From Balanoglossus misakiensis (Eukaryota; Animalia; Hemichordata): a DNA stretch of 64,000 bases. The stretch covers positions 2,662,075 to 2,726,074 of the forward strand of contig CM082589.2 in the NCBI GenBank assembly GCA_040954595.2. Direction: 5' to 3'. Position numbers and translations under genes: made by a program. Below the pieces are notes generated by a model. That model was not told where the DNA came from, made no database searches, and saw only the letters and a list, made by a program, of their open reading frames with translations. Each line of letters opens with the position of its first letter. The stretch's first letter is position 1. Positions 30,801 to 41,427 of the stretch are shown in pieces.

Positions 30801-33800
30801 ACTACTGACTTCACATTTTTCCTCCTTGTGAATGGTACCCTGAAAAATTACGGTAGATCAATATGTGACACATGAAACTTAGTTTCAAACAAGACATGCT
30901 GCTTAAATGTTGAATTACACCTTGAAAATCAGTCAAGCCAATACTTATAAATACACAACTTTGTTAACAGATCTCTCACTGGAGAGGGCAATTTCAACTG
31001 GAGGTATATATTCCCATTTGAATACCTTGCTGCTGAGGAGAAGATAGTCATCTCCAAGAAGGAATCCCTGTTCTCCTGGGATGAGTCAGAGTACAAGATT
31101 CCACCAAGGTTAAACTTACAAGTGTGGGATGCAGATCATTTTTCAGCTGATGATTTCCTTGGTGAGTCCTCTCTCAAACTTCCATGCCGCAGTGGCCCAT
31201 CTGGCAATCGCACAAACCTGTCTGCCATCTGAATTGTTACAGTGTGTCTGAGTTAAAATCATGTTAATTACAAGGTTAGTGTACTTTGCAAAGTGTCAAT
31301 TCCTCCTTGTTTTGATTTTTAGGGGCTGTTACTTTGGATCTTAACCGTTTTCCCCGTGGAGCAAAGAACGCCAAGCAGTGTTCTCTGGATATGCTGAAGA
31401 CTGACGGCTCTGTGCCTCAGGTGTCTCTGTTCAAACTGAAGAGAATCAAAGGATGGTGGCCATTTGCTGCAAAGGGAGAAAATGAAGAGGAAACAGAGCT
31501 CACAGTGAGTAGATGTGGCTGTTATAAATGAGAATAATATTTCAGGTTTTCCTTTGTTTGAAACCTTGGCAGTATAACCATTTAAAAATTAGCTTTGAAA
31601 TGTAAGTGGGAATTTCATTCTTAAGATGATATGTATTAAGCTGTATCAAGTAATGTCATGGTGCTCTGGGCATCCAAGTACTACTTGATTGATTCATGTT
31701 ACAGTTATTCCTGACTTGCCATCTTTAACTTCTCAGGGGAAAGTTGAAGCTGAACTTCATCTGATGACAGAAGAGGAAGCAGAAAAGAGTCCAGCTGGTC
31801 TTGGACGAGGTGATCCTGATGCTCTGGATAAACCGAAGTAAGTTTTGTTCCCCATGAAATATTATACACACACATAAATAAAACATGTCTTCCTTTCCAG
31901 ATCTGGACACCTGCAGTATTGGTACTTTACAACTTAATTTGTGCCTTACAGGTTTACAAATAATGCATTTTTTTCCAGGAAATGCCATTGGAGAATTTCT
32001 TTTGGTCTTGATATGGGATTTATGTTTAGTTGTGTCTTCATGTTTCATAATTACAGTGAGTCATGTATTTTAAAAATTACTGATTTCATAAAAACGTGCC
32101 TGATGTATATTGATATGCAATGTGCAAACTGAGAACTGACTTAAAAGAGCACCGTGGAAACTGTACACTGCAAAGTGTGAATGAAAGATCTAAGCCCAGC
32201 TTCCAAGGATGATCCTGCATTGGCTTGAAAGAGACTTTGGAAAAAAGATGGAACACAATGAAGATCTCAGAAATGTCAAGATATATGAATATCGTATGTG
32301 AATGTTGCATCAGTGATCAAGTTGATTGAGCTCATGAAGATTGATGTAGAGATGACAGAATCTGAAGATGGGTAAACAAAATAAATCATAAACGTTGTTC
32401 AACAACTTGCTTATAATCTTCTCTTGCTCTTCCTATTTCCATACTATTTTTCCAGACCCACTACATGCATACCAAATTCCAAACACAAACTTGTACACGA
32501 GTAAACATATGATATGAACTTAATAATCAGGCAAATAACTGCTAAAAATTCAACAAATTAATCAATGTAATTATTTACAAATAACTTCAAAATTCAAACA
32601 TTAATCTGGTATTTACTCCTATTAATGTAAAGTTAGGAAAATTAACACGACTGTGTAAACCATTTAGAAACTGTATCATGCATGTTTCTCAGTCACTAAT
32701 GTCAACTTAACTTCAGCATGCAACACTGCATGCATTATTTCTTTTCTGGACTAAGGAGTTTTCTGAACATCACTGTTGCCACAGATTCACAACAGCATGG
32801 AAGTCTATATAATTCTCACTAAGAGGACTGCTTCAAGAACTAACAACATTCCTTGCACTTTCCTAATGCACTAACAACAATTATTCCTTATTAAAATCTC
32901 TTTATCTTTGCACTGAATTCTGACTAACCACTTATATTTTGTCACCTTTCTGTAATTTGCACCACTTGTATTTCTTTTCTTGATTCAGACGGCCTGACAC
33001 TTCCTTTATTTGGTTTCTCAATCCCTGGAAATCTCTGCGTTATATCCTTTGGCTGCGCTACAGATGGGTCATCTTCAAAGCCATACTCATCTGTCTCCTT
33101 ATAGTGTTCCTGGCTCTTTTTATCTATGCCATACCTGGGTACACAGTGGCCAAAATGTTTGGGATGTAAATGTTTCCTACTGGTGGAAAATTCTTGGTAT
33201 GTATCTGTCTGGTCTGATTTGCACCACTATTGAATCTATCACTCCCATGACAGGAAGTGTAGACAGACAAAGTTCCAACACTAACTCTGACATATTCCCA
33301 TATTTAATCCAAATCAGTCCAGATCTTTCTCAGTATGTAGGCTTAGATCTAGTTTCAGTTATTGTCGTTAGGCTATCTGTATGTTGTTCAAATGCTTTCA
33401 ATACATGCATTTCCCAGTTCCATCTACAAGAAACACCAGTATGTTAACATTTGGTTATTTTTGTAAATGTTATATGTTTTGCAGCACACATCACTAACAT
33501 GTCACTAACTCACTTTCATTCCTTGCAGGTAACATGTTACCTCACATGCCATTGCCTTGCATATGCATATATCACTTACTATATGTACAGTTGGTGCAAT
33601 GTTTGCTTCATTTTTATTAACACTGACTGCACATGTATAATTCACACATCATGCTTTTGAAGTCCAAAGCAACATGCTGACAGACTACTAACATTTTGCC
33701 ATAGAACATGTGCCTGTGCTAGTAATATGCAACTGCCACTATGGATGTAAATAGTATTACACTTTAAAGTGCCCTACACATATTTCCACAAGCTCATTGC

Positions 33801-41427: not shown

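Follow-up and report, generated by a model that had tools for sequence, protein, structure and literature searches.

An otoferlin-like gene of the acorn worm Balanoglossus misakiensis ends in six paralogous membrane-anchor exons

Why would one otoferlin-like body be fitted with more than one membrane anchor? Mammalian OTOF has two C-terminal exons used in a tissue-dependent way, as the initial annotation of the present locus had stated: exon 47 in the brain and exon 48 in the cochlea, which encode the last 60 residues (PMC10394277, excerpt). Deafness results when the cochlear exon is mutated (PMC10394277, excerpt). The same question is raised, in a larger form, by a stretch of 64,000 nt from B. 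misakiensis (the window, that is, the whole stretch of DNA analysed), in which an otoferlin-like gene terminates in six paralogous membrane-anchor exons, whose presence is confirmed here and whose reading as alternative last exons of one gene is supported (Table 1). Six selected anchors on one body form a natural series that bears on why mammals keep both a brain and a cochlear anchor.

Table 1. The otoferlin-like gene and its tail exons in window coordinates
Feature	Position	Strand	Remarks
Otoferlin-like gene ahead of the tails, with C2 and Fer domains	6800–31505	+	tblastn with P0038, P0040, P0240 and P0253
Last common exon	31737–31837	+	phase-2 donor GTAAGT
E1, Trp type	32989–33169	+	181 nt to stop; donor-like site 28 nt past the stop; AATAAA/ATTAAA absent before E2
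E2, Cys type	34336–34513	+	178 nt, shorter by one residue; sister of E3 and the most diverged copy
E3, Arg at the Trp/Cys column	35410–35587	+	178 nt; frameshifted counterpart in Ptychodera flava isoform X5
E4, Trp type	36704–36884	+	181 nt; nearest to the single tail of protostomes; P. flava X3 tail identical at 57/59
E5, Cys type	40200–40380	+	181 nt; 54/59 identical to the tail of 12/15 listed P. flava isoforms
E6, Cys type	41247–41427	+	181 nt; final copy ahead of a convergent gene at ~44.5 kb
Sense-strand ACTAAC cluster around E1–E3	32839–36068	+	candidate Quaking/SF1 sites; motif identity from PMC13004596 (excerpt)

The coordinates and frames of the array were re-derived, and they agreed with the earlier description of six paralogous tail exons with a phase-2 join, an AG and a pyrimidine tract, two lengths and a stop in each. 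All six exons were in frame with the donor of the last common exon, and the tract before every one of them was pyrimidine-rich (73–100% C/T at −30 to −5), with the strongest tract before E2. When the window was searched with the proteins of relatives by tblastn, the upstream exons were found in single copy and in an order colinear with the relatives' otoferlins from about 6.8 kb, and the tandem C2/Fer body gave its best summed match to the otoferlin-like protein P0240 of P. flava. Between 31.8 and 41.4 kb the same kind of search showed tail exons only. No seventh or decayed tail copy was found in the 64 kb window, either with a protein profile (next best independent match, E 0.27) or with a DNA profile of the six exons (next best match, E 0.5). 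Ferlin_C (PF16165) scored above its cut-off in four of the six tails; E2 and E3 fell below Pfam detection, and both align end to end with the others and keep the hydrophobic core. A PDB search matched dysferlin alone (E 1e-13). Among the long named proteins tested, the best match was the otoferlin-like protein of P. flava, followed by that of Glandiceps talaboti. The gene is likely co-orthologous to OTOF, FER1L4 and FER1L6 together, because the ferlin family expanded in vertebrates (PMC2923515, excerpt), and by analogy with what is known of the otoferlin family its role would be calcium-triggered vesicle fusion (PMC10394277, excerpt).

An assembly artefact, or a run of tandem gene fragments, could also produce similar exons in a row, and a nearby 131-bp tandem repeat with 98% identity indicates that this gene is open to duplication or mis-assembly on a local scale. 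However, the six tails were only 51–71% identical to each other in DNA and 38–71% in protein, in line with the earlier statement that no assembly duplicate is present. A self-BLAST of 31838–46000 showed no strong similarity between spacers (best spacer–spacer match, E 0.014), and the strong matches were the exons and their acceptors only, so that the claim of unrelated spacers held as well. Given also the single-copy upstream exons and the counterparts in P. flava, we consider an artefact extremely improbable. Purifying selection, claimed earlier, was borne out by a dN/dS analysis. Synonymous sites were at or near saturation (pS 0.62–0.91) and pN was 0.18–0.40 in all 15 pairs, and the codon model gave an omega of 0.050 with F1X4 and 0.028 with F3X4, each a whole-tree value for the six exons together rather than a measure for each copy, with log-likelihoods 66 and 79 units above those for omega = 1. 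Thus, the six-exon set as a whole is under strong purifying selection, and the saturated pS, the low pN and omega, and the unrelated spacers together rule out a duplicated haplotype as well as neutral decay across the set taken as a whole.

We regard it as probable that this is one ferlin gene with six intact, selected anchor exons behind a shared donor, of which each transcript likely picks one, likely depending on the cell type. The parts of this reading that were observed are the anatomy, the selection and the P. flava models that join the common exon to counterparts of E3, E4 and E5; from the arrangement of the exons, use of one anchor at a time is likely. The same calcium-sensing C2 body would then be fitted with one of six anchors, by regulated selection of a 3′ splice site followed by cleavage and polyadenylation past the chosen exon.

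The comparison with P. flava bears directly on this reading. RefSeq XP_ models generally rest on RNA alignments; the P. flava XP_ isoforms are gene-model predictions, and their counts are not expression levels. The otoferlin-like cluster holds 36 isoforms, and the tails of the 15 listed were compared: 12 were E5-like, 2 were E4-like and 1 (X5) was E3-like. The proposal of alternative last exons thereby gained comparative support for E3, E4 and E5, whose counterparts are joined to the common exon in the isoform models, and no counterpart of E1, E2 or E6 was present among the 15 listed of 36. E4 and E5 were identical to their own counterparts at 57 and 54 of 59 residues and crosswise at only 38–40 of 59; both are nearer to these counterparts than any two tails in the window are to each other (maximum 71%). 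Isoform X5 (P0259) matched E3 at 17 of the first 19 residues and then matched the shifted frame of E3 at 18 of 34, and thus is a frameshifted E3. The frameshift leaves X5 annotated as an isoform without a membrane anchor, and reflects either an assembly error or a decaying or broken allele.

These observations lend something to the possibility that just two or three copies (E4, E5 and perhaps E6) matter and that the rest are rarely used spares of exon birth and death. The E5 counterpart dominates the listed isoforms, the E3 counterpart is frameshifted, the longest branches of the six-exon codon-model tree lead to E2 and E3, and the six tails are biophysically alike. In contrast, all six exons have stayed intact despite saturated synonymous divergence, E2, one of the presumed spares, has the strongest pyrimidine tract, and the ACTAAC cluster described below is placed exactly around E1–E3. 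We therefore judge that spare copies are quite unlikely to account for the array. An alternative that we also find unlikely is that the exons serve chiefly to provide distinct 3′ UTRs that govern mRNA location, stability or dose, and that the differences between the proteins amount to tolerated drift. The 0.9–3.3 kb that lie 3′ of the individual exons are mutually unrelated in sequence, AATAAA or ATTAAA occurs 3′ of E2–E6 and not of E1 (as raw occurrences), and core length and tail charge do not differ across the tails. However, exon-specific residues are conserved across species in E4 and E5, and the same column switches between Trp and Cys in scallops and in vertebrates.

What the anchors may change in the protein was considered under the reading of six selected, alternatively used exons. 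The initial annotation had suggested that the tails send one protein to different membranes. All six anchors have an 18-residue hydrophobic core with a GRAVY of 2.3–3.2 and a lumenal end of 11 residues with a charge of +1 or +2. A hydrophobic transmembrane domain combined with a low tail charge favours targeting to the ER (PMC5450235, excerpt). By this rule an organelle switch is not predicted, because core length is the same and tail charge nearly equal in all six; the suggestion is thus not upheld where it would mean distinct organelles, and a change of organelle among the six anchors appears unlikely. All six isoforms would instead take the ER and secretory route. The transmembrane domain of otoferlin is required for expression and for docking to liposomes (PMC8351550, excerpt). 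The six tails do differ in the composition of the core and in the basic helix that precedes the membrane, and through this amphipathic helix the anchors might tune vesicle sorting, seating in the membrane or choice of partners.

One column of the helix, on its basic side, stands out. The residue pattern described earlier as shared, with Trp or Cys at this position, was found in five of the exons and fails in E3: the residue is Trp in E1 and E4, Cys in E2, E5 and E6, and Arg in E3. Across the other animals, Trp occupies the column in 15 of the 16 single-tail clusters. The vertebrate pair and the scallop pair each combine a Trp tail with a Cys tail, and such pairing was seen in three of the six lineages with several tails; in a residue comparison that omitted a partial amphioxus piece, it is absent from amphioxus (5/5 Trp), and it is also absent from Owenia (both Trp) and from the second Glandiceps gene (both Cys). 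Juxtamembrane cysteines can be S-acylated. By analogy, the Cys form may be S-acylated, and the Trp/Cys switch in the pre-membrane helix may create a putative lipid-modification site. A literature search that covered titles and the beginnings of abstracts found no paper on acylation of ferlin tails.

To which known system is the array closest? Dscam1 carries tandem clusters of paralogous internal exons, one exon of each being used per transcript through docking/selector pairing, and it also has two alternative transmembrane exons. Clustered protocadherins have variable first exons with their own promoters that are spliced to constant 3′ exons. The initial annotation had called the array Dscam- or protocadherin-like, a label that we do not retain. 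As in Dscam1, tandem paralogous exons are probably used one per transcript; unlike Dscam1, where the variable exons are internal and a shared coding exon follows, the exons here are terminal and each has a stop. The arrangement is the reverse of the promoter choice among first exons in protocadherins. A Dscam-like stochastic choice through competing RNA pairings, with the tails acting as tags of cell identity, would fit the one phase shared by tandem paralogous exons, but in addition to the terminal position of the exons no docking arm that pairs with several exon-proximal sites was found when the 25 longest of the 221 inverted pairs were inspected, and the lumenal tails are 11 residues long and nearly identical, which leaves little exposed for recognition. 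We hold this explanation to be very unlikely.

The array is better read as an enlarged form of the OTOF exon 47/48 choice. In both cases, within one gene family, the same last 60 residues are swapped by duplicated exons that follow a shared exon, and the B. misakiensis exons have the same phase, one shared donor and a stop in each, as in a choice of the 47/48 type. The likeness extends to the Trp/Cys column, where the Leu-rich vertebrate tail has Trp, like E1 and E4, and the other vertebrate tail has Cys, like E2, E5 and E6. The Leu-rich Trp tail corresponds to brain exon 47 (PMC10394277, excerpt), and the Trp type comes first in the fused vertebrate models P0002 and P0003. The differences are that there are two copies in vertebrates and six here, in an invertebrate, and that in mammals exon 47, a skipped exon, leaves exon 48 untranslated, whereas most copies here look like separate last exons. 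One-to-one orthology between the copies and the vertebrate exons is neither demonstrated nor rejected by the trees described below. E1 weakly resembles a skipped exon of the exon-47 kind, as it lacks a polyA signal and has a donor-like site. Donor-like sites past the stops that scored at least 6 were found only after E1 (+28, 6.0) and E3 (+94, 7.2), in a scan with a crude 15-site matrix, some training sites of which were mis-picked, that also gave such scores to 20 of the 590 GT sites in the array.

Arrays or pairs of tails were also seen in other animals. The Branchiostoma belcheri proteins KAI8499151.1 and KAI8499153.1, with near-adjacent accessions, contain three and two tail pieces that gene prediction has run together, and amphioxus likely has an array of at least five tails, known from gene models rather than DNA. 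It resembles the present array in having many pieces and differs from it in that all five are of the Trp type; it is known from raw annotation. In the scallops Mizuhopecten and Argopecten two alternative tails, one Cys and one Trp, are kept across both genera; this resembles the alternative tails here, with two copies only, and the data are compatible with a duplication confined to scallops. A second otoferlin-like gene of Glandiceps talaboti (P0435, P0509–P0513) has two alternative Cys-type tails and one isoform with no tail. Among the members listed (at most 15 each), 4 of 20 multi-member clusters contained alternative tails within a species, namely P. flava with three, the scallops with two, the second Glandiceps gene with two and Owenia with two, one of the Owenia tails showing an odd upstream join. 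The other 16 of 20 had one tail per species among the members listed; because one of these 16 is a fish, such listings can miss tails. Parallel duplications in amphioxus, scallops and the second acorn-worm gene suggest that the tail exon has been diversified repeatedly, and the array exposes gene models that fuse or miss tail exons.

The initial annotation was aware of no comparable array. No description of more than two otoferlin tail exons was found in the titles and abstract beginnings of the open-access papers listed, those on hemichordates and Branchiostoma included, and such an array is unmentioned in the available excerpts of PMC2923515, PMC9282427, PMC7140416, PMC12264198 and PMC5740500, the last of which deals with human terminal-exon candidates tabulated in an appendix. 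An array as such is not unique to this gene, given the amphioxus models with at least five tail pieces, and public annotation already contains part of the expanded tails, uncommented. The two-exon choice of otoferlin anchor is already known, and the present locus expands it to six exons.

The introns of the array were also inspected for candidate signals. Of 4096 hexamers, ACTAAC ranked first for enrichment in the introns of the array, with 15 copies against 2.2 expected (Bonferroni 4e-5; the motif was first spotted by eye and its enrichment computed afterwards). The introns before E1 to E6 contain 3, 7, 1, 2, 1 and 0 non-overlapping copies, with three within 225 nt upstream of E1, three likewise upstream of E2 and none within 600 nt upstream of E4–E6. 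The motif is strand-specific, with one reverse-complement copy in the array, and outside the array the preceding 5.5 kb lack it and the following 22.6 kb have a single copy. Tandem ACUAAC upstream of an exon is an arrangement that QKI represses and SF1 activates in mammals (PMC13004596, excerpt); the present sites lie 66–225 nt from the acceptors, farther than the 34–43 nt of the published case (PMC13004596, excerpt). A STAR-family protein (Quaking-like) bound to the cluster could repress the proximal exons E1–E3 in some cells. The locus points to one candidate residue, Trp or Cys before the membrane, and one candidate regulator that would act through Quaking-type sites. A second hexamer, TGGTGG, also passes correction (11 versus 1.5 in the array introns, 31838–41246; Bonferroni 0.002). 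The RBFOX-type motif TGCATG (12 versus 6.3 in the array) was dropped, as it is raised across the upstream gene too and equalled by its reverse complement, and YCAY was not enriched in the array.

The origin of the copies was approached with trees of 46–47 tails over 59 columns, which were unstable; none of them included the P. flava X5 piece, and the best tree and the clade tests also omitted a partial amphioxus piece. In one best tree the deuterostome Cys tails grouped apart from the vertebrate Trp tails (support 66/87), and in an alternative tree the vertebrate Trp tails were nested within the vertebrate Cys tails. E2 and E3 were sisters in every tree, and E4 fell among Trp-type tails near the single tails of protostomes. 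No clade was rejected (p-AU 0.22–0.59), whether in the four one-clade tests that used the full alignment or in the two that omitted column 21; a vertebrate-only clade was among those tested (p-AU 0.39 and 0.59). An ancestral cassette and repeated duplication would both be compatible with these unstable trees. It is a doubtful but conceivable extension that a multi-exon cassette already present in the deuterostome ancestor survives in reduced form as the human brain/cochlea pair and is kept as six exons in acorn worms and at least five in amphioxus; its core function would be a Trp-to-Cys switch in the juxtamembrane helix, by which the form of fast sensory cells becomes lipid-modifiable, and a Quaking-type protein would pick the anchor by cell type.

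Some further features of the window were noted. Five copies of the 131-bp unit (98% matched) at 27515–28169 reproduce the final part of an otoferlin exon (its 3′ end) together with the donor, and represent either a recent duplication or a local mis-assembly. The exon at 28906–29136 has a match in P. flava isoform X9 (57% identity) and none in the Glandiceps, Tubulanus and Pleurodeles proteins tested, and is likely optional. A candidate 36-nt in-frame microexon, with AG before and GT after it, lies in a variable linker at 22037–22072; ACTAAC occurs downstream of it at 22111 and 22143, and again 3′ of the exon at about 20945–21112. The convergent neighbours on the minus strand span 44520–63793, the first starting at ~44.5 kb, and comprise an O-fucosyltransferase-like ORF (44520–45245), a gene for a single-pass membrane protein (about 47.5–55 kb) and, at 62.5–63.8 kb, a PP2C phosphatase that contains an acidic stretch and that we take to be PPM1G-like.
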